In this document: one piece after another, positions 13,408-25,018 of the stretch
Layout of the letters: each line of letters starts with the position of its first letter
Numbering within the stretch: position 1 is the stretch's first letter
Assembly (NCBI GenBank): GCA_965204565.1
Contig: CBDBEU010000005.1
Span: forward strand, 1,412,366 to 1,476,365
Reading direction: 5' to 3'
Length of the DNA stretch: 64,000 nt
Source of the DNA: Hyphomicrobiales bacterium
GTDB lineage: Bacteria > Pseudomonadota > Alphaproteobacteria > Rhizobiales > TMED25
Notes under the pieces: model-generated
The model's input: the letters and a program-made list of their open reading frames with translations, nothing else
The model's database searches: none
What the model was told of the DNA's origin: nothing
Translations under genes and position numbers: made by a program

Positions 13408-13516
13408 CCTGCGGGACGGTTGGGTTGGCAGGTCATCCAATTCGATTAACTTGACACCAGCGCCTCGGGGTCATTATGTGCGGCCAAGTTTATCAGTCAA
13501 CGCGCAGGATATTGCC

Positions 13517-13684
13517 ATGGCCAAGGCACCATCGATCAAAATCAAGCTCGAGAGCACAGCGGGCACCGGGTACTATTACGTCACCAAGAAAAATTCCCGC
13601 ACGCAGACGGACAAGCTTTCGGTCAATAAATATGATCCGGTTGTGCGCAAGCATGTTGAGTTCAAGGAAACGCGCATAAAATAG
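13517..13684 (+). CDS. rpmG: 50S ribosomal protein L33
   Basis: [55 protein letters not shown] (55 aa), inside track ORF 13172..13684. Confidence 0.95.
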
Positions 13685-13709
13685 CAGCGATCGAGTTCCC
13701 GGCAAAAAA

Positions 13710-13737
13710 GGCGCCGTCGATGACGGCGCCTTTTGTA
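13710..13737 (+). terminator. Rho-independent terminator of rpmG
   Basis: Perfect 9-bp stem ggcgccgtc / gacggcgcc with loop gat, followed by ttttgtattt. It is preceded by an A-run, so it may act in both directions. Confidence 0.75.
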
Positions 13738-14060
13738 TTTCCGGTGGCCAATCCGGATGATCTTCACAGGCTATAATTTCAGTGGCCGGCCGATAGCGGC
13801 ATTCGTCGAGGACGACCACTCAAGCCACTAACCGACCGGCCCACCCCACGGACCCAAGAGATGCGGCGGACCTGAGCACTCCGTAAGGCATTCTATAGCA
13901 GTCATCGCCGCTGTTATTCTTAACCGGCGACGCTAATTCTCGGTGAACTTAAGATGCCGCCGTTCCGCGTTTCTATCAACGCGCTTTATATTTCGAATTG
14001 GATATTATTGATTGTGGAGCGAAACGCAATGAATATATCTGAACTTACCGATACGTTCTA

Positions 14061-14909
14061 GGCTCAGAACCCATTAATTTGCATTGAAGTTCGATTTTTG
14101 ATTCAGGATGGCAAAGGAGTTTGCCATGTCGGATCTGTTGCTGCTCTCACGCGCTCAAATGTCAAAGATCGAGCCATTCTTTCCCAGGTCCAACGGAGTT
14201 GCCCGGGGGGATGATCGTCGTGTTGTGTCAGGCATCGTCTGCGTGCTGAAGCACGGGCTGCAATGGAAGGACGCAGCTGCGGCCTGCGGCCCGCACAAGA
14301 CGCTCTGCAGTCGCTTTCGACGCTGGACCGAACTACCGCGTGTTCGACAAGATTTTCAGTCACTTGACCGCTTCTGACGGGCCACCCGATACGCTGATGC
14401 CCGATACGCTGATGATTGATGCAACACACTTGAAGGCTCATCGCACCGCGTCGAGCCTTCTGAAAGGGGGTCTTCCCCGCCACATCGGGCGCACAAAAGG
14501 CGGGCCGAACACCAGACTCCATGACGTCTGCGATGGCGACGGACGACCGCCGGCCATGTGCCTGGCGGCTGGCCAGCTGTCGGATCATATCGGTGCGAAG
14601 CTCTTGTATCCGGGTCTCTAGTGATAGCGTCAAAGCTATAATGATCGCAGATAAGGGATACGATTCAGACGATGATCGCGCGGCGCTGAAAGCCGGGGGG
14701 ATCACCCCGTGCATTCCGCCCCGAACAGGACGAAAGGCACCCGCTTCCTTCTGCAACATTCAATACAAACAGCGCCATAAGGTTGAGAACATGTTCGCAC
14801 CGCTCAAGGACCGGCGCCGCATCGCGATATGACCGGCGGGCAGACGTCTTCATGGCCGCAATCACAATGGCAGCCATCCTCATATGGTGGCTATAATGAG
14901 TTCTGAGCC
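14061..14909 (+). mobile_element. IS5-family (IS427-group-like) insertion sequence, 849 bp, transposase frame broken
   Basis: Imperfect terminal IRs GGCTCAGAACCCATTAAT and GGCTCAGAACTCATTATAG (reverse complement of the right end). Flanking TA/TA at 14059-60 and 14910-11. OrfA begins MSDLLLLSRAQMSKIEPFFPRS...RRVVSGIVCVLKHGLQWKDA. The rest of the transposase (HLKAHRTA, IGRTKGGPNTRLH, ADKGYDSD, KQRHKVENMF, RYDRRADVFMAAITMAAILIWWL) is spread over at least 4 frames. It also contains a 15-bp tandem duplication at 14394-14423. Confidence 0.85.
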
Positions 14910-14911
14910 TA

Positions 14912-14984
14912 GAGCATTTTCACATTGAGCGTTGATATCCTGCTGCGTGGAAGAAGTTTTCGCATTCGGCCGGGAGGAAGCAGT
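14912..14984 (-). mobile_element. IS630-family element, 3-prime terminal piece (part 1 of a copy split by the IS5-like element)
   Basis: gagcattttcacattgagcgttgatatcctgctgcgtggaaga...ggaggaagc is about 95% identical to 30365-30436. It encodes the transposase C-terminus ...CFLPAECENFFHAAGYQRSM*. Confidence 0.75.
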
Positions 14985-16163
14985 CGGACCCCCTGCAGAC
15001 CCCTGTCTTCTGCCTGGAATCGGGTGACGAGAGCGCCTTTACGGCCGCGATGCGTGTCGGCCCTTTGCCTGGGTTGTGGTTCGGGATTTGGTTTCGCCGG
15101 GGCCGGGCTATGCCACGGCGCCTTTGCGCTCCCGGAACAGGAGCCGTTTCATGTTGAATGCGATGTTGGCCATGCCGATCCTGGCCCTCGCCCGGTCGAT
15201 GCCGATGGTGCGGACGAAGAGCCCCATTCGTGCCTTCATCCCGGCGAAGGGATGTTCGATCGCGGATCGGACCTTCGACCGTGCGGCATTGGCCCTCTCG
15301 TGATGCATGGGCATCGGCTTGCCGGGCGGCGTCGGTGACGATCCATGTCCGGACGAAGCCGTGGCGCCGGTCGGCATTGATATGGGATTTGCAGCCGAAC
15401 ACCGGCGTGGCGATTGCGCCCATCGCCGTGCCGTCCGGGCGCGTCTTCTTGCGCCCTCGCTTGAGCGTCCAACGCGCGTCGCGATCCTTTTGCGCCAGTT
15501 TCCGGGGCCAGTTTCCGGGGATTGGCCTGCCAATCAGGCGGGATGCCCCCGCCCTTGACGATCTCCTTCCCGGCATCGGTCATGCGCTGGCGCGGGGCCG
15601 CCACGATGGTGGCATCGACGAGCTGCCCGCGCCCATGGCGAGATATCCGGGCGAGATGTCCGGCGTCCTCAAGATGCGCGTCGAACCGGGCGAAGAGTTT
15701 CTCCACCGTGCCGGTCCGCACCAGGGCTTCCCGGAACCGCCGGATGGTCGTCTCGTCCGGCGCCCGCGCGCCGTCATCGAGGCCGAGGAAACGGCCAAAG
15801 CTGCGCCGGTCCATGATTTGGAACGCCGCCTGCGCATCCGACAGGCCTTAGAGCGCCTGGATCACCGGCACCTTGAACATGAGGACCGGGTCCATCGGCG
15901 GGCGCCCGCCTTGCCTGCCCCCGCCTTGCCTGCCATCGGAACGATCAAGCGTCGCATCCAACCCTGGCCGGCAACTCTGGCCGGAAGAGCTCGAAGTCGA
16001 TACCCCCTGCAAGCCGCTCCAGCGGATCTCCCGCCTTCGATAACGCCGCGTAGCGCTCATCCGGATCGAACAACCCGCGCTGTGCAGCCATCGTACCCTC
16101 CGTCGCTGATATCCCCACGGAATCACGCCAGCACGCTCAAAGCCAGGGGGGGTCAGGGCGTCC
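14985..16163 (-). mobile_element. Defective IS5-family element, copy A (1179 bp)
   Basis: Transposase remnants on the minus strand: MAAQRGLFDPDERYAALSKAGDPLERL, GGRPPMDPVLMFKVPVIQAL*GLSD, RRSFGRFLGL, QLVDATIVAAPRQR, KDRDARWT, RSKVRSAIEHPFAGMKARMGLFVRTIGIDRARARIGMANIAFNMKRL. Terminal IRs are GGACCCCCTGCAGACCCC and GGACGCCCTGACCCCCCC. Direct repeats AGTC lie at 14981-84 and 16164-67. Near-identical to 21184..22352. Confidence 0.85.
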
Positions 16164-16490
16164 AGTCGAGATAGTGCAGCCGATGCGTTCAACGAGGGCG
16201 TCGAAGGTTCGGGCCGGATCTTGCCTGAGCAGCGCCTTGGGCCTGGCAAAGGCCTTCTCGATGGGGTTCATGTCGGGGCTGCAGGGCGGCAGATAGAAGA
16301 TCCGGGCGCATCGGGAGGTGGTGATCTGACGGATGCCGGCGACCTTATGGGCAGGCAGGTTGTCGAGCACCACGACATCATCGCGTGTCGGGGTCGGTGC
16401 CGGCACCTCCTCAATATAGACGCGAAAAGCCTAGCTATCCATCGGACCATCGAGGACCCGGGGGGCCGTGATGCCTGAGAGGCGAGGGCC
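16164..16490 (-). mobile_element. IS630-family element, transposase C-terminal remnant (part 2), abutting the pleD 3-prime end
   Basis: Minus-strand translation RLSGITAPRVLDGPMDS*...[19 protein letters not shown]...FYLPPCSPDMNPIEKAFARPKALLRQ (DDE region) with internal stops. 16164-16265 is about 95% identical to 30437-30548. Confidence 0.8.
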
Positions 16491-17848
16491 GGCAACTCTG
16501 TTACGCCCGGTCCGTTTGGCGCGATATAATGATTCATCAGCACGGCGCAGAATATTGGTGGGACTATCGATCGGATTTTCAATACCGGAAATACCAATGC
16601 TGACGGTGACATTCAATCCACCCTCAGCTCCTAGAGCATCGAACGATTCTGCGGCAATGCGTTCCCGTAATCTCTCGGCTACGATGCCGGCAATCATCAT
16701 GCCGGTTTCAGGCATGATGACGACGAATTCCTCGCCGCCATACCGGCACACCAAATCAACACTGCGAACGTTGCTGCTGAGCCTCTGGGAGAACTCGCGA
16801 ATTACCGCATCACCTGAATCGTGGCCGTGATTGTCGTTGATCGCCTTGAAGTGGTCGATATCGAGAAGCAGCATCTACAAGGGCTTGCCGCGATGGGCCG
16901 CCTGATCGATCAAGGTGGCCATGTGACCTTCCATGTATCGGCGATTATGCAGGCCGGTGGTCGGATCGGTCACCGCAAATTCAATGCTTTGTTCGAGATT
17001 GGCGCGCAATCGGTCTGCAAATCTTTTGCGCCGTAGTTGTTCGCGCACCCCCGCCAGAAGTTCGTTCTTGTCGATCGGGCGCAGAAGATAGTCGTTGACC
17101 CCGAGATCGAGCGCGCGAATGAACCGCCCATTGTCGTCGGGTTCGCAAAGAACCAGGATCGGGAGATTGCGGGTGCGGTCGACCGAGCGCAACTGCGAGC
17201 AAAGTCTCAGACAGTCGAAATTGGCCAGCGACAGAGACACGATCATCAAGTCGAAGCCACCGTCAACAGCGCGAAACAAGGCTTCTTGAGGATTTTCCTC
17301 AATCGTTACCTCATGGTGCTCGCTAATGATCGCCTTTGCACGGTTGCGTGAACTGCTACGATCATCGACCAGCAGGATCTTGCCACCTTCCTCGGCACTT
17401 GCATCGGCGAGTGTGAGCAGGTCCTGCAATCCCATGCGTTCACCGATTGCAGCACGCAGCATCAACTCGTCGGTGATCATCTTGAGGCGTACAAGGCTGC
17501 GCACGCGGGCCAGCAAAGCGATGTTGCTTACCGGCTTGGTCAGGAATCATCGGCGCCGGCTTCCAGACCCTGGACACGATCGGCCGGAGAATCGAGAGCT
17601 GTGACCATGATCACGGGAATGTGGTGAGTCAGCGGGTTTTGCTTGATGCGGCAACAGACCTCAAAGCCGTCCATGCCGGGCATCATGACGTCAATCAGTA
17701 CGATGTCGGGATGCGCACGCTCGACAATACCTAGTGCTTCCTTGCCGTCGCGCGCAGTCAGTACACCGAAATACTCGGCCGTCAGTTTGGCCTCAAGCAG
17801 TGTGACGTTGGCCAGCACATCATCGACGACCAGAATGCGAGCCGTCAT
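16491..17848 (-). pseudogene. pleD: Response-regulator diguanylate cyclase PleD (REC-REC-GGDEF), disrupted
   Basis: Three track ORFs (17540..17848, 16875..17516, 16431..16874) together spell PleD. There is a 1-nt deletion at GADD(F)LTKP (gatgattcctgacc, ~17545). There is an in-frame TAG at 16875-77 (RGKPL*MLLLDIDHFK). The native stop is replaced by IS630-derived sequence after GRNRVA. GGEEF is present. Confidence 0.85.
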
Positions 17849-18291
17849 GAGGGCTCTTTCAGGAAGCCTTCAACGGTTTGCAGAAAGGTTGCAACCGAGA
17901 TCGGCTTGGAAATATAGGCTTCACAACCGCCCTGACGGATTTTTTCCTCATCCCCCTTCATGGCAAACGCTGTGACCGCAATAACAGGGATGTGGCTCAA
18001 ATTCTCATCTTCCTTGAGCCATTTGGTGACTTCCAGGCCGGAAACTTCCGGCAGCTGAATATCCATCAGGATCAGATCAGGCTCGTTCTCGCGCGCGATC
18101 TCAAGCGCCATAAGTCCATTGCGTGTCTGCAGCGTACGATAGCCGTGCGCCTCCAGCAAATCGTTGAAAAGCTTCATATTTAGCTCATTGTCCTCAACGA
18201 TCAGGACCGTCTTGGCGGTGACGTTCTCAGCGGCGGGAGGTGGATTGACCGTGGCCTTTTCAACCATCCGTTCACTCTGTATCTCACTCAT
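17845..18291 (-). CDS. divK: Single-domain cell-cycle response regulator DivK
   Basis: [25 protein letters not shown]...[25 protein letters not shown]...[33 protein letters not shown]. Its stop overlaps the pleD ATG (ATGA). The start is uncertain (18303, 18291 or 18267). Confidence 0.88.
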
Positions 18292-18747: not shown

Positions 18748-19715
18748 ATGAGCGGGCCGGTGCGTATCGGGATTGATCTTGGCGGTACCAAGATCGCCGG
18801 GGTCGCTGTTGATGCGAACGGCAGGGTTGTTGCCCAGGAGCGGGTTGCAACGCCGTGCGGCGGCTATCATGGGTCAATCGAGGCGATTGCTGAAATGGTG
18901 TCACGCTTGCGCCAACAAGCCACAGGGAGCGTGAGGGCAGCAGAAGGACTAAATGGTGTTGGCATTGGCATTCCTGGCTCGATCTCTCCGGCGACGGGGG
19001 TGATTCAGAACGGAGATTCGGTTTGGCTCAATGGCCGCCCACTCCACCTCGATCTTGAACGGCGCATGGAGTGCCCGGTAAGGCTGGCCAATGATGCTGA
19101 CCGCCTCCCCCTTTCTGAAGCCCATGACAGCGCGGGGGCAGACATGAGCACCGTATTTGCTGTCATTCTTGGCACCGGCTGCGGTGGTGGCATTGTGGTT
19201 GACCACCGGCTGGTGACTGGCCCACACCACACTGGCAGCGAGTGGGGCCACATACCGCTGCCCTGGGCACAGGCCGATGAACATGACGGCCCGCAATGCT
19301 GGTGTGGCAGACGCTCATGCATGGAGACATGGGTATCCGGTCCGGCCTGGCGCGCGATCATGAGCGTGTTACCGGTCAATCCCTGACCACGCACGAAATC
19401 GTGGCCGCCGCCGAGACTGGGGACGCAGCTGCCAGAGCGGCACTTGAGCACCACGCCGACCGGCTCGCCAGGGGGCTTGCAGTAATTGTCGATCTGATAG
19501 ATCCCGACGTCATCGTGCTGGGGGCGGGCTTTCAAATCTCTCTTAATCTCTATTCCGTATTGCCGGAAAAGATGGTGCCGCACATTTTTGCCGATTCGGT
19601 TCAAGTCACAATCAGGCCCCCCATGCATGGAGATTCGAGTGGCGTGCGCGGCACCGCGCGGCTTTGGGACGATACCGCTGCCGGGGGAAATTTTGCCGGA
19701 ATCGGGGGACCGTAA
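18748..19715 (+). pseudogene. ROK-family sugar kinase (fructokinase / N-acetylglucosamine kinase-like), one frameshift
   Basis: ORFs 18748..19386 and 19296..19715. N-terminus RIGIDLGGTKIAGVAVD, Zn motif CWCGRRSCMETWVSGPG. The frame changes at ggtccggcctgg (~19345, a G-run). The C-terminal part RDHERVTG...PDVIVLGAGF...HGDSSGVRGTARLW is in the next frame. Confidence 0.65.
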
Positions 19716-19734: not shown

Positions 19735-21036
19735 ATGAACGGTTTTTGCCGCGATTGCCTTGGTGAGGTTGAAAGCGGCGAGCGGTGTCCGGACTGTTCC
19801 AGCCCGCGTCTTGTCCGCCATTCAGAAATTGACCGGTTGGCGATCGCCCATATTGATTGCGATGCGTTTTACGCAGCCATCGAAAAACGTGACAATCCAT
19901 CGCTTGCCGAACGCCCGGTGATTGTCGGCGGCGGCAGGCGCGGGGTCGTGGCCACAGCGTGTTATATCGCACGGATAAGTGGCGTTCACTCCGCCATGCC
20001 GATGTTCAAGGCGCTGCAGATTTGCCCTGGGGCAGTGGTGATCAGCCCCGACATGGCAAAATATGTCAACGTCGGACGCCAGATCCGAAACATGATGCTG
20101 GAGTTGACCCCACTGGTTGAACCCTTGTCGATTGACGAGGCATTTCTCGATTTATCGGGCACCGAACTCATCCATGGCCTGAACCCCGCACGCACGCTTG
20201 CATCTTTCGCCACCCGGATTGAGAACGAAGTCGGTATCACCATTTCGGTTGGCCTCAGCCACAACAAGTTCCTTGCCAAGATCACGTCCGATCTCGACAA
20301 ACCGCGAGGCTTTCAGATCATTGGCCGGGCTGAGACCGAAGCATTCCTTGCCGATCAACCGATCGACATCATCTGGGGGGTGGGAAAGGCACTGCAGCGG
20401 CGGCTGGCTGGCGACGGGCTGAAGCACATATCCGATCTGCGAAATGCTGGCGAGCCTTTGTTGACCGCGCGATATGGCACGATTGGCCGCCGGCTGGCTG
20501 CGCTCGCATGGGGCAATGACACGCGTGCCGTGACGCCACAGCGAAACCCCAAGAGCATCAGCGCCGAAACAACCTTCGAGACCGATATTGCGGACTATGG
20601 TGAGCTTGAATCGCGTCTATGGAATTTGTGCGAAAAGGTATCGGCGCGGGCCAAGAAAGCCGATCTTGATGGCCGTACCGTTGTGCTCAAACTCAAAACC
20701 GCTCAATTCAAGGCCAGTACGCGAAATGCCAGGCTCGATGTACCGACGCAACTTGCCGGAATTCTATTTGGCGCGCTGGCGCCGGTGCTCCAGTGTGAAG
20801 CTGACGGGCGCCGATTTCGCCTGCTGGGACTTGGCCTTAGCGATCTTTCACCAGCCAGCGAGGAGCCGGCAAGCGATCTGTTTGCTGGTGAGCGGGTAAA
20901 AAACGCTCAGGTTGAAGCCGCGATGGATGAAGTCAGGGCCCGGTTCGGCCCCGGTTCGATCGACAAGGGACGCGCTTTCAGGCGGGGCCGGAAGCCTCGG
21001 CGCAGTCAGGCACGTCCAAAACCTGCATCTCAGTGA
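19735..21036 (+). CDS. dinB: DNA polymerase IV (Y-family) with N-terminal Cys-rich extension
   Basis: ATG at 19735 within ORF 19588..21036; IAHIDCDAFYAAIEKRDNP...PVIVGG...SIDEAFLDLSG. Confidence 0.9.
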   Translation: MNGFCRDCLGEVESGERCPDCSSPRLVRHSEIDRLAIAHIDCDAFYAAIEKRDNPSLAERPVIVGGGRRGVVATACYIARISGVHSAMPMFKALQICPGAVVISPDMAKYVNVGRQIRNMMLELTPLVEPLSIDEAFLDLSGTELIHGLNPARTLASFATRIENEVGITISVGLSHNKFLAKITSDLDKPRGFQIIGRAETEAFLADQPIDIIWGVGKALQRRLAGDGLKHISDLRNAGEPLLTARYGTIGRRLAALAWGNDTRAVTPQRNPKSISAETTFETDIADYGELESRLWNLCEKVSARAKKADLDGRTVVLKLKTAQFKASTRNARLDVPTQLAGILFGALAPVLQCEADGRRFRLLGLGLSDLSPASEEPASDLFAGERVKNAQVEAAMDEVRARFGPGSIDKGRAFRRGRKPRRSQARPKPASQ

Positions 21037-21183
21037 GCCGCCGAGCGTCAGGCCGGCTGCAATCCCGGTCTCATAGATATCGAAACTTTGAGTGAAAGCC
21101 GGCGTCTCGTCCTCGTTTCCGGTGCCCTTGAAATAACTGACCGTAACGCGCCACAAATGCTGATCACTCAGTTGCTCGCCCTG

Positions 21184-22352
21184 CCCCCCTGGCTTTGAGC
21201 GTGCTGGCGTGATTCCGTGGGGATATCAGCGACGGAGGGTACGATGGCTGCACAGCGCGGGTTGTTCGATCCGGATGAGCGCTACGCGGCGTTATCGAAG
21301 GCGGGAGATCCGCTGGAGCGGCTTGCAGGGGGTATCGACTTCGAGCTCTTCCGGCCAGAGTTGCCGGCCAGGGTTGGATGCGACGCTTGATCGTTCCGAT
21401 GGCAGGCAAGGCGGGGGCAGGCAAGGCGGGCGCCCGCCGATGGACCCGGTCCTCATGTTCAAGGTGCCGGTGATCCAGGCGCTCTAAGGCCTGTCGGATG
21501 CGCAGGCGGCGTTCCAAATCATGGACCGGCGCAGCTTTGGCCGTTTCCTCGGCCTCGATGACGGCGCGCGGGCGCCGGACGAGACGACCATCCGGCGGTT
21601 CCGGGAAGCCCTGGTGCGGACCGGCACGGTGGAGAAACTCTTCGCCCGGTTCGACGCGCATCTTGAGGACGCCGGACATCTCGCCCGGATATCTCGCCAT
21701 GGGCGCGGGCAGCTCGTCGATGCCACCATCGTGGCGGCCCCGCGCCAGCGCATGACCGATGCCGGGAAGGAGATCGTCAAGGGCGGGGGCATCCCGCCTG
21801 ATTGGCAGGCCAATCCCCGGAAACTGGCCCCGGAAACTGGCGCAAAAGGATCGCGACGCGCGTTGGACGCTCAAGCGAGGGCGCAAGAAGACGCGCCCGG
21901 ACGGCACGGCGATGGGCGCAATCGCCACGCCGGTGTTCGGCTGCAAATCCCATATCAATGCCGACCGGCGCCACGGCTTCGTCCGGACATGGATCGTCAC
22001 CGACGCCGCCCGGCAAGCCGATGCCCATGCATCACGAGAGGGCCAATGCCGCACGGTCGAAGGTCCGATCCGCGATCGAACATCCCTTCGCCGGGATGAA
22101 GGCACGAATGGGGCTCTTCGTCCGCACCATCGGCATCGACCGGGCGAGGGCCAGGATCGGCATGGCCAACATCGCATTCAACATGAAACGGCTCCTGTTC
22201 CGGGAGCGCAAAGGCGCCGTGGCATAGCCCGGCCCCGGCGAAACCAAATCCCGAACCACAACCCAGGCAAAGGGCCGACACGCATCGCGGCCGTAAAGGC
22301 GCTCTCGTCACCCGATTCCAGGCAGAAGACAGGGGTCTGCAGGGGGTGTCCA
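21184..22352 (+). mobile_element. Defective IS5-family element, copy B (~1169 bp), inverted relative to copy A
   Basis: The track ORFs are identical in sequence to those of copy A on the opposite strand (for example 21521..22099 + equals 15236..15814 -). AGT lies on both flanks (21181-83 and 22353-55). The termini differ from copy A by a few nt. Confidence 0.85.
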
Positions 22353-22355
22353 AGT

Positions 22356-23405
22356 GTTTCCCACCAGGACCCGCATCCTCAACCCGCTGCACCGGCCGAT
22401 CGACGCCGACCCGTATCACTGCCATTGATGCCCCACAGGCCCTGGAGCCGAGGCGCGAGCCCCGAAGGCCGACCCGGCCCGCTAAGATGCCCTTCGCGGC
22501 AAGGAGGGCTCTCCTGCGTCATGACCCTGCAAGCGCCGCCGTCATGGTCATGCTGCGCTCCGTCAGGATGTACGGCATGGCCCGGGCCGCCGGAGATCTC
22601 ATCGAACGGCGCGCGCCCGCCTTCGATACGGCGCTCCCCATCCTCTCGCAGATGCTCAAGGCCGAGGTCGCCGAACGCGAGGTCCGGTCCGTCGCCTGCC
22701 GGATGAAGGCAGCCCGCTTCCCTGCCTGCAAGGTCCCGGCCGGGTTCGACCCTGCTTCCGGCGAAGTGAACGGGGCCATGGTGCGCCGGCTGCATCGCTG
22801 CGCGTTTATCGAAGGCGCGCATAACGTCGTGGCTGCAGGTGGCCCCGGCACCGGAACGACCCATATCGCTGCGGCCCTGGGCGTCCGGGCGGTTGAGCAT
22901 CATCGCAGGAAAGTACGGTTCTTCTCCACCGTCGACACGGTCAACCTGCTCCAACAGCAAAAGGCCCTGAACAAGGCCGGGCGCCTGCCGCGCCTCGATC
23001 CCGTTATCCTCGATTAGCCGGGATACCTGCCGTTCGGTCCGTCGGGCGGGGCGCTGCTGTTCCACCTGCTCTCAAAGCTCTACGAACGCACCGGCGTCGT
23101 TATAACCACCAACCTCAACTTCTCAGTGAGCGGGCGGCGTGTTCGGCGATACCAGGATGACCACGGCCCTGCTCGACCGGCTCACTCATCATTGCCACAT
23201 CCCGGAGACCGGAAACGACAGCTTCCGGTTCAAGACTTCCGCTGCCGGCGGCAAAGCGAAAAAGGAGACCGTCCAACACTTGACCAGGCCTCCAACCAGG
23301 GGGGACATGTCACACCACAACCCGGCTCACTTCTCGATGAAAATCCCGCGGCAAACCTCAGCAGAAATCAACAAATACCCTTCAGATAGTATCCTGCCGA
23401 ATTAG
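22356..23405 (+). pseudogene. istB: IS21-family remnant: istB helper-ATPase gene with frameshifts; istA absent
   Basis: HDPASAAVMVMLRSVRMYGMA...PILSQMLKAEVAEREVRS...GGPGTGTTHIAAALG...VILD*PGYLPFGPSGGALLFHLLSKLYERTGVVITTNL, then in another frame [25 protein letters not shown]. The left boundary is uncertain. Confidence 0.8.
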
Positions 23406-23439
23406 CCAATTGCCCATTTTTGTCCAGGTCGGCGATCTC

Positions 23440-24425
23440 GCTCTAGATCGGTTTTTATTTAATCCCGTTCATATCCTGCGTCGGCGATAACGTCCCAAAG
23501 GTCCGTGACGGTTCTGACGGCTGCCTTTCGTAGCAAAGCCTTGAGCTTTGAGAATGCCATCTCGATCGGGTTGAAGTCGGGACTGTAGGGCGGAAGATAG
23601 AACAGCGTGGCTCCGGCGGCCTCGATGGCTTGGCGGATGCCGGTCACCTTGTGAGCGGGCAGGTTGTCCATGACCACGATGTCGCCTTGACTGCGTTCGG
23701 GCACGAGTACCTGTTCGACATAGGCCTTGAAGGCGACGCCATTCATCGGCCCATTGAGCAGCATCGGGGCTGCCATGCCGGACAGGCGCAAGCCGGCGGC
23801 AAACGTGGTCGTCTTCCAGTGTCCATGCGGGAGCGCGGCCCGACAGCGCTCGCCGCGTGGAGCCCGGCCGCGAAGCCGCGCCATCTTCGTGCTGGCACCC
23901 GTCTCGTCGATGAAGATCAGCCGTTCCGGGTCGAGGTTCGTCTGGCCGCTGAACCAGAGCTGGCGCCGAGCCAGGACATCCGGGCGTTGCTGCTCGGCCG
24001 CGTGCGCCGTCTTTTTTCGAACGTCAGCCCGCGCTTGGCAAGGAAGCGGCACACTGTCGGGTCAGATGCTCGAACCCCATGGCGGCGCTCCAGTTCCTCG
24101 GCGGTCTCATGTAAGGCGATGTCCTTGCGCGATGCCACCAGCCCAAGAATGAAGTCCTCGTGCGCGTCCAGCTTCGAGCCCGGCGGTTGGCCCTGGCGCG
24201 CCGGCCGGATATTACCGCTCGCTCGCCACTGCCGATACCAGCTCCCAGCCGTCGATATCCCGATCGAGAACCGGCCCGTCCTCGATCGCGGCGATCACTC
24301 GTCGGCGAAGGTCCAAACCATAAGCACACGCCATATCTGCCTCCCGATAAGCCTCGGGACACAGAATCATGTGCCAAACCATTTGGGAATCCCCTAAATC
24401 GACTCCGATTACGTGAAACATGCTC
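23440..24425 (-). mobile_element. IS630-family element (a different member from the other IS630 remnants), transposase in at least 3 frames
   Basis: N-terminus MACAYGLDLRRRVIAAIEDG (24212..24421 -), middle [37 protein letters not shown] (23917..24138 -). The DDE part is [25 protein letters not shown]...[13 protein letters not shown]...[27 protein letters not shown] (23459..24052 -). The ends are approximate. Confidence 0.8.
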
Positions 24426-24765
24426 TAGGGTGCAGGTCAATACCCAGAAACACCGGATTGCCATCGACTTCACCAGCCCGCTCTTCAACGATGAAGTAGC
24501 CATCACCGCTAATCGACATATGTGTGGCAATCGAAGAGTCCTGAATATCTCCCTCGACCGTATTGGTCGCGCGCGATATCCCAAAAACTGATCCGCCCGG
24601 TTGAGTCCCAAGGCTGGATTCAGTCACCAGATCCTTGGACACCGTTTCGGTACGCTTGCATCCGATGGTCTGAGAGTTGGCGATATTGTCTGACACATGC
24701 TCCAGCGCGAAGGATTGAGCCTGAAGTCCGGTAATCGCCGTTGTCATTGCCCCGAATATTCCCAT
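24425..24765 (-). pseudogene. Flagellar hook/rod family protein (FlgE/FlgG-like), N-terminal ~113 codons only, truncated at the IS630 boundary
   Basis: MGIFGAMTTAITGLQAQSFALEHVSDNIANSQTIGCKRTETV...GDGYFIV within ORF 24409..24813. This is the conserved Flg basal-body N-terminal domain. The reading frame runs into IS630 sequence. Confidence 0.7.
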
Positions 24766-25018
24766 GACCTGTCTCCAAATGCACGATTGCCGGATCCCCG
24801 GCCCCACCTGCACCTAGCAAACACGGGGACAAGAGAGAAAACCGTTTAAAGATAATATGTTAAACTGTTTCTTGGGATCTTTATTGGCTTGCCGCATGGA
24901 CAATTTTACCGTGCCGGGCGGCAAATGCTGCTGGGTAGACGACCTCGCACCAGCCGCTCAAAGCCTGTGCAACCGCGGATCTCGAGAATTTGCCACGGCG
25001 TATCCTGCTGCTGAATAG

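Follow-up and report, generated by a model that had tools for sequence, protein, structure and literature searches.

An apparently recent pleD pseudogene beside an intact divK in a decaying, repeat-rich Hyphomicrobiales-type genome

We analyzed a 64,000-nucleotide (nt) stretch of a Hyphomicrobiales bacterium genome (contig CBDBEU010000005.1, positions 1,412,366 to 1,476,365), hereafter the window, which carries the gene pleD at 16491-17848 on the minus strand. This gene has the receiver-receiver-GGDEF (REC-REC-GGDEF) architecture of the PleD family and is a pseudogene. In our reading, to which we assign a probability of roughly 85%, it is a recently inactivated PleD-family diguanylate cyclase gene in a widely decaying genome that is undergoing expansion of insertion sequences (IS) and had already lost the target structures of the PleD branch. 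Coordinates are window positions unless a contig is named; C3, C4 and C5 are contigs of the host genome, which is of Hyphomicrobiales type, comprises 4.06 Mb in 5 contigs and is estimated to be 97.4% complete with 3.58% contamination.

No uninterrupted frame is left in pleD. A frameshift at 17545 and an in-frame TAG at 16875-16877 divide it into three pieces, and its 3' end is swapped for other DNA. Piece 1 (17546-17848, minus strand) holds codons 1-101 with the first receiver, ends with ...GADD and is 95% identical to PleD residues 1-101 of L024. This locus belongs to a set, L024-L029, of DNA from metagenome-assembly relatives recovered by a protein search with PleD. Piece 2 (16878-17543, minus strand) is shifted to the -1 frame with respect to piece 1 and comprises the end of the first receiver, the second (adaptor) receiver and the beginning of the GGDEF domain; its translation runs (F)LTKPVSNIALL...HRGKPL up to the TAG. 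The remainder of the GGDEF domain is encoded by piece 3 (16491-16874, minus strand), which reads MLLLDIDHFK...GGEEF...GRNRVA and includes the RSVD inhibitory site and the GGEEF motif.

The family assignment follows from the pieces taken together. Pfam detected Response_reg in piece 1 and Response_reg plus GGDEF in pieces 2-3, in the order receiver, receiver-like adaptor and GGDEF, and the GGDEF profile was matched over 161/161 positions across the TAG. The NCBIfam PleD equivalog profile NF007135 matched piece 1 at profile positions 1-101 (177.6 bits) and pieces 2-3, read through the TAG, at positions 102-453 of 457 (446.1 bits). The sum of these scores exceeds the cut-off of 474 bits, which no single open frame does. 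An alignment with 11 orthologues showed that the phospho-acceptor aspartate (DVMMPGMDG; Asp53), the RxxD inhibitory site (RSVD) and the active site GGEEF are all kept. The gene lies directly downstream of divK, with an ATGA overlap at 17845-17848 (ctcATGAcgg), an arrangement that is common to the relatives.

The first lesion maps to 17540-17546 (minus strand). Here the window reads GAT GAT TC CTG ACC, and three close relatives have GAT GAT TTC CTG ACC; one T of the T3 run is missing, leaving TT at 17545-17546, and the first frame ends at a TGA at 17540-17542. The frameshift falls inside the motif DDFLTKP, which is invariant in 11/11 more distant orthologues. The second lesion, the TAG at 16875-16877 (minus strand), replaces a conserved serine codon by a C-to-A change. 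This codon is TCG in all 3 close relatives, and the position is serine in 9/11 orthologues. Around it, the window has TTG TAG ATG, as compared to CTG TCG GTN (Leu-Ser-Val) in the relatives, showing that the following codon differs too. The frameshift and the TAG clearly inactivate pleD.

A sequencing or assembly artefact, behind which the true pleD would be intact or less damaged, is very improbable. It would suit a frameshift in a short homopolymer, and the assembly, with 5 contigs despite 25% repeats, was probably made from long reads. However, the TAG arose by substitution, and the neighboring codon departs from the relatives as well. Moreover, about 59 kb of long housekeeping open reading frames (ORFs) of the host genome are free of frameshifts; they include RpoB (1405 amino acids [aa]), RpoC (1414 aa), GyrA/B, PolA, SecA, UvrA, CarB and others, and the genome has 494 ORFs of at least 500 aa. 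This implies a low rate of indel errors, with a probability below about 7% that one falls within 1.37 kb. The junction at the 3' end of pleD also speaks against an artefact, since unique DNA meets the interior of an IS there within a microhomology, and synteny is kept across the adjoining mosaic; a repeat collapse does not give such a picture.

This junction, the third lesion, is located at 16491-16495 (minus strand) inside a microhomology of 4-5 nt, TTGC(C). In the relatives, pleD ends with AAC AGA GTT GCT GCG ACA GCT GCC TGA (...GRNRVAATAA*), and the window continues as AAC AGA GTT GCC GGC CCT CGC. The last 4 pleD codons, the stop codon and approximately 230 bp of intergenic DNA were removed. 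From TTGCC onward, the sequence is an IS630-family relic (16163-16495, minus strand), which corresponds to approximately positions 660-990 of an element of about 1.06 kb, matches Pfam DDE_3 at positions 80-145 of 146 and is 90-96% identical to many genomic copies; full copies have a length of about 1.06 kb. The breakpoint, at approximately position 660 of the element, is internal and does not coincide with an element terminus, and a terminal inverted repeat with a TA target duplication was not found at the junction. A simple insertion of IS630 into pleD was rejected on the basis of this internal junction. The third event was a deletion or illegitimate recombination rather than an insertion into pleD.

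Beyond the junction, the pleD frame continues for about 20 codons into the relic and ends at a TAG at 16431-16433. That codon is itself a nonsense change within the relic: CAG is found in most other aligned copies and CAT in one. Taken alone, the third lesion trades 4 residues for a tail of about 20 residues, leaves the catalytic domain whole and is no demonstrated inactivation. The first-pass annotation had described pleD as inactivated in three independent ways; all three features are present where it placed them, but its count is overstated, since the third removes only 4 codons.

The DNA between pleD and its conserved convergent neighbor rpmG (L33 protein; 13517-13684, plus strand; intact) shows the extent of this rearrangement. 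The spacer measures 468 bp in the relatives, and about 230 bp of it are left in the window. The surviving rpmG-proximal half is located at 13679-13911, with 78% identity to L024/L025 over 13493-13911. A repeat mosaic of about 2.6 kb (13912-16490) occupies the deletion gap. Inside the IS630 relic sits a defective IS5-like copy (14987-16162, minus strand) with a DUF772 match and up to 94 genomic matches, beyond which the final ~77 bp of the IS630 element follow (14910-14986).

We also considered whether the fragments may still work, be it by recoding (frameshifting or read-through of the TAG), as a stand-alone receiver, or as a GGDEF piece started from the ATG after the TAG. Piece 1 still has its phospho-acceptor aspartate and is still coupled to divK by the ATGA, and an ATG directly follows the TAG. 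However, piece 1 ends before the conserved lysine of the TKP motif, leaving the receiver fold incomplete. PleD receiver domains are needed for dimerization and activation. The ATG-started piece lacks these receivers and the first ~35 GGDEF residues, including LTGLxNRR. None of the 50 tRNAs of the host genome has a CUA anticodon, and amber suppression of the pleD TAG was rejected for this reason. We consider functional fragments the least probable of the explanations weighed here.

The operon partner of pleD is undamaged, as had been proposed. divK (17845-18291, minus strand), whose TGA overlaps the pleD ATG, encodes an intact stand-alone receiver of 148 aa (Pfam Response_reg, E=2.4e-26). Over 148/148 residues, it is 88.5% identical to the intact L024 orthologue, and its identity to the L028 protein is 94%. 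The ratio of nonsynonymous to synonymous divergence (dN/dS) of divK is 0.039. An exact look-up did not find this DivK sequence on record. Elsewhere in the host genome, CckA is full length (1053.7 bits; cut-off 1000), and open ORFs encode one PdhS-like kinase of 1005 aa and two DivJ/PleC-like kinases. The cell-cycle branch, comprising DivK, CckA and kinases of the PdhS/DivJ/PleC type, is open and conserved and looks intact at the sequence level.

Comparison with close relatives sheds light on the timing of the inactivation. In the metagenome relatives, an intact PleD of 457 aa was found at 90, 85 and 82% identity, in the same synteny. Their gene order is ROK - DUF3572 - divK - pleD - rpmG - NUDIX - rnr - topA - dprA, and rpmG has the same neighbors on L024-L027. 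The window order, dprA-topA-rnr-NUDIX-rpmG, repeats, pleD-divK-DUF3572-ROK-dinB, matches that of L024. In 11 other families of the order, pleD is intact and 455-457 aa long wherever its start could be placed. As the species representatives include no near relative, an exact-peptide scan of their genome contigs with the PleD read-through retrieved nothing except an unrelated GGDEF protein of betaproteobacterial origin.

Between the pleD of the window and that of the nearest relative, dN was 0.053 and dS 1.18, giving a dN/dS of 0.045, and the ratio for divK was similar. With such a low ratio over a dS of about 1.2, inactivation is therefore recent, and pleD was under strong purifying selection during nearly all of the divergence from the nearest relative. 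When two outgroups were used to assign changes to lineages, the host lineage had 19 amino-acid and 33 synonymous changes in pleD, and the nearest relative had 10 and 42 (Fisher p=0.08). Changes unique to the host genome at otherwise conserved positions include L to T in LTGL and R to C in CRRIK. These numbers may hint weakly at late relaxation on the pleD branch, on which we do not rely (p=0.08).

Next, we consider the structures that the PleD branch would serve. Family searches of the host genome found no FlhA, no flagellin and no T2SSE-type (CpaF/PilB/VirB11) ATPase. The truncated hook gene reported earlier at 24.4 kb was recovered as an flgE stump (24409-24813, minus strand), which encodes approximately the first 100 residues of the hook protein (positions 1-98 of 422 in the FlgE profile NF004242). 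It ends at a repeat boundary at 24428 (repeat block 21168-24428) and is the sole Flg_bb_rod match in the genome. A fliF pseudogene at a single locus (C4:249432-251064) contains a TAG and a TAA, has lost collinearity and is about 50% identical to FliF of the relatives. In the region C4:249432-251536, it adjoins a small conserved gene with 74% identity to an ORF of 96 aa from the flagellar cluster of a relative. A tblastn search with 323 ORFs from the flagellar regions of two relatives revealed no further orthologues in the host genome; the flgE stump, the fliF pseudogene and its small neighbor are the only flagellar relics found.

The chemoreceptor signaling domain (methyl-accepting chemotaxis protein, MCP) had three matches in the host genome, all of them truncated (3/3). 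Two of these fragments, C4:598518-598760 and C3:611254-611496, have identical extent and score and are probably copies of a single truncated chemoreceptor fragment that a repeat carries. Five GGDEF loci were detected: pleD, three with degenerate or truncated motifs, and one with intact RxxD and GGDEF motifs, which encodes a protein of 251 aa without a receiver domain. There are about 7 EAL loci, of which 3-4 are broken, and 4 PilZ matches. A second REC-REC-GGDEF protein was not found by the family searches. On the basis of these searches and of the tblastn search with 323 ORFs, a second PleD and a hidden flagellar cluster were rejected. According to this sequence census, signaling by cyclic di-GMP (c-di-GMP) is reduced and not gone.

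The first-pass annotation had suggested that selection on the motile-to-sessile switch was lost in this lineage. The absence of FlhA, flagellin and a pilus ATPase, the fliF pseudogene and the truncated chemoreceptors bear this out, and neither a complete flagellar regulon nor a second PleD paralogue emerged from the 97.4% complete genome. Loss of the switch is well supported; its place is within a genome-wide decay.

This decay is extensive. In a self-comparison at a threshold of at least 85% identity, 25.6% of the host genome was repeated DNA, and some repeat families have more than 90 copies. The genome thus displays IS expansion, with a high repeat load and many mixed-lesion pseudogenes (ABC, EAL, MCP and fliF). 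In the syntenic block shared with L024, 4/14 genes are broken, namely pleD, a ROK kinase gene, eipB and a GDPD gene. The pseudogene for the ROK-family sugar kinase (18748-19715, plus strand), the immediate syntenic neighbor on the DUF3572/divK side, has a frameshift near 19350; in tblastn with a 312-aa orthologue, residues 1-200 are in frame 1 and residues 198-310 in frame 3. A rearrangement has divided eipB. The C-terminal ~75 residues are encoded at 20981-21207 (minus strand), touching the repeat block at 21168, and the first 88 residues at a distance of about 120 kb, in the region C5:1313173-1314740. The distant piece is found beside yjgF, an intact femAB-like gene and the GDPD pseudogene, which is read in three frames; in the relatives, eipB and these genes form one contiguous stretch with dinB. 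Among approximately 72 ABC ATPase loci, about 9 (at least ~12%) are fragmentary or contain stops.

Some side observations were made on the same genome. Multi-kb ABC-transporter stretches are present in two or three copies that score identically, and several of these copies lie close to contig ends: C3:2354-3676 and C5:9496-10818; C3:94000-95241 and C4:940217-941460; and, in triplicate, C4:4820-7551, C3:423351-426082 and C3:799067-801798. Either segmental duplication or redundancy of the assembly could explain them. The 50 tRNA genes include a single tRNA-Ile(GAT) and a single tRNA-Ala(TGC), which suggests one rRNA operon, and a tRNA-SeC at 374444-374540 of one contig.

Given such a background, pleD could be a random casualty of drift with no specific link to motility or attachment, and PleD could still be mildly useful. 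Four of 14 syntenic genes with unrelated functions are broken, a quarter of the genome (25.6%) is repeats, at least 12% of the ABC ATPase domains are damaged, and the amino-acid excess on the pleD branch is weak and nonsignificant (p=0.08). All of this speaks for drift. However, decay is far heavier in the motility and c-di-GMP families than in the ABC ATPases: flagellar genes are missing or damaged, 3/3 MCP matches are truncated, and 3-4 of about 7 EAL loci are broken. In addition, the other 18 genomes of the family that were searched also lack pleD, yet divK is kept in those checked for it. We regard random loss as unlikely, yet as the most serious of the competing explanations. The gene pleD is no special target; it is one among many casualties of the genome-wide decay, an ordinary pseudogenization.

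The 18 other genomes of the same family according to the reference taxonomy are small (0.9-2.2 Mb). pleD was found in none of them, and divK was kept in 5/5 genomes examined for it. The G+C content around divK is ~30% in two same-family genera and 45% in a third. In the nearest same-family genome (locus L014, G002:C38; DivK 78% identical), divK is followed by ATG ACC ACG CGG ATG CCA GTG GTG GCG TGA. The encoded MTTRMPVVA* is a recognizable remnant of approximately 10 codons of the pleD start; the remainder of pleD is deleted, and rpmG is reached after another ~0.5 kb. In 17/18 of these genomes, FlhA was not found. The sole flagellar-export match in the family is a full-length FlhA at G017:C102:2779-4740, in a genome of 1.6 Mb with 7% contamination and 330 contigs, and this match is probably a contamination. 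GGDEF is absent from the two same-family genera with the smallest genomes (0.9-1.6 Mb), in which EAL was not found either. The tiny genomes represent uncultured lineages known from metagenome-assembled genomes, some with marine (Tara) matches, and are not proven symbionts.

In model alphaproteobacteria, DivJ/PleC phosphorylate PleD, which leads via c-di-GMP to ejection of the flagellum, formation of holdfast and stalk, and CtrA turnover that depends on PopA (PMC3577659). Beyond the observed lesions, the intact orthologues in close relatives and the missing or decayed motility genes, we infer that the loss of motility came first and made pleD dispensable. In this scenario, the lineage would first have lost the structures that are under DivJ/PleC-PleD control in the models, namely the flagellum, the chemoreceptors and the pili. 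With these gone, little would be left for pleD to regulate, so that it would be under little or no selection and would decay. It would then have gained the 1-nt deletion, the nonsense substitution and the deletion at its 3' end that involves IS DNA. DivK, CckA and the PdhS/DivJ/PleC-type kinases, which form the cell-cycle branch of the module, are still open and conserved.

Several points weigh against this scenario. The 1-nt deletion and the junction are read from the assembly alone, and the order of events, flagellum first and pleD later, is deduced from the degree of decay only. At a background pseudogene rate of ~12-29%, a random loss of pleD would not be surprising, and the causal tie between pleD loss and motility loss is circumstantial. 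One apparently competent GGDEF protein as well as EAL and PilZ proteins remain in the host genome, and c-di-GMP signaling overall is therefore still under some selection. Finally, nonflagellate Rickettsiales such as Ehrlichia and most Wolbachia keep pleD (PMC4426382); thus, flagellum loss alone does not make PleD useless.

The case has counterparts in known systems. The gene resembles pleD of Caulobacter crescentus and Agrobacterium tumefaciens (Atu1297) in its REC-REC-GGDEF architecture, the phospho-acceptor aspartate, the RxxD and GGEEF motifs, and the divK-pleD gene order with its start-stop overlap. In contrast to these, it has a frameshift, a nonsense codon and 4 codons swapped for IS DNA, and its host has no flagellum to eject. 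The first-pass annotation had stated that DivK is essential and PleD is not. For DivK, this applies to Caulobacter and Brucella but not to Agrobacterium, which tolerates the deletion of divK as well as of pleD; in A. tumefaciens, deleting pleD has hardly any phenotypic effect (PMC3577659). In Wolbachia wOo, pleD consists of several separate ORFs, and pleC has become a pseudogene (Christensen & Serbus 2015, PMC4426382). The two cases are alike in the decay of the PleC/PleD branch in a nonmotile, genome-reduced alphaproteobacterium that kept CckA/CtrA. In contrast to the Anaplasmataceae, which lack divK and are far more reduced, the genome studied here has divK and kinases of the PdhS/DivJ/PleC type and, at 4 Mb, is in an early, IS-rich phase of decay.

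Sodalis pierantonius SOPE, Shigella and Burkholderia mallei exemplify the IS-expansion stage of reductive evolution. The host genome is similar to theirs in mobile-DNA load, mixed-lesion pseudogenes, deletions and rearrangements mediated by IS, and missing motility genes. A host association of this organism is not claimed.

No new mechanism or system is revealed by this gene loss, which is clear but ordinary. It is a clean and well-dated case in which a regulator decays after the structures it controlled are gone, and divK, the essential half of the operon, is preserved. The pattern fits the genetics of Caulobacter, Brucella and Agrobacterium. One tentative reading, which we hold to be somewhat less probable than not, is an ordered dismantling of the polarity module: the output structures, here almost entirely deleted, would be lost first and PleD, of which nearly the full length is left with two or three lesions, second, and the DivK-PdhS/DivJ/PleC-CckA core would be retained indefinitely. 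The end state, divK without pleD, may be what is seen in the 0.9-2.2 Mb genomes of the family. If this is true, the lineage would represent a natural time series of the collapse of a regulatory network after the loss of its targets. Because intact orthologues exist at 82-90% identity and same-family relatives have already deleted pleD, the lineage could be used comparatively, as a series from which to read the order in which genes of the DivK/PleD/CtrA network are lost.

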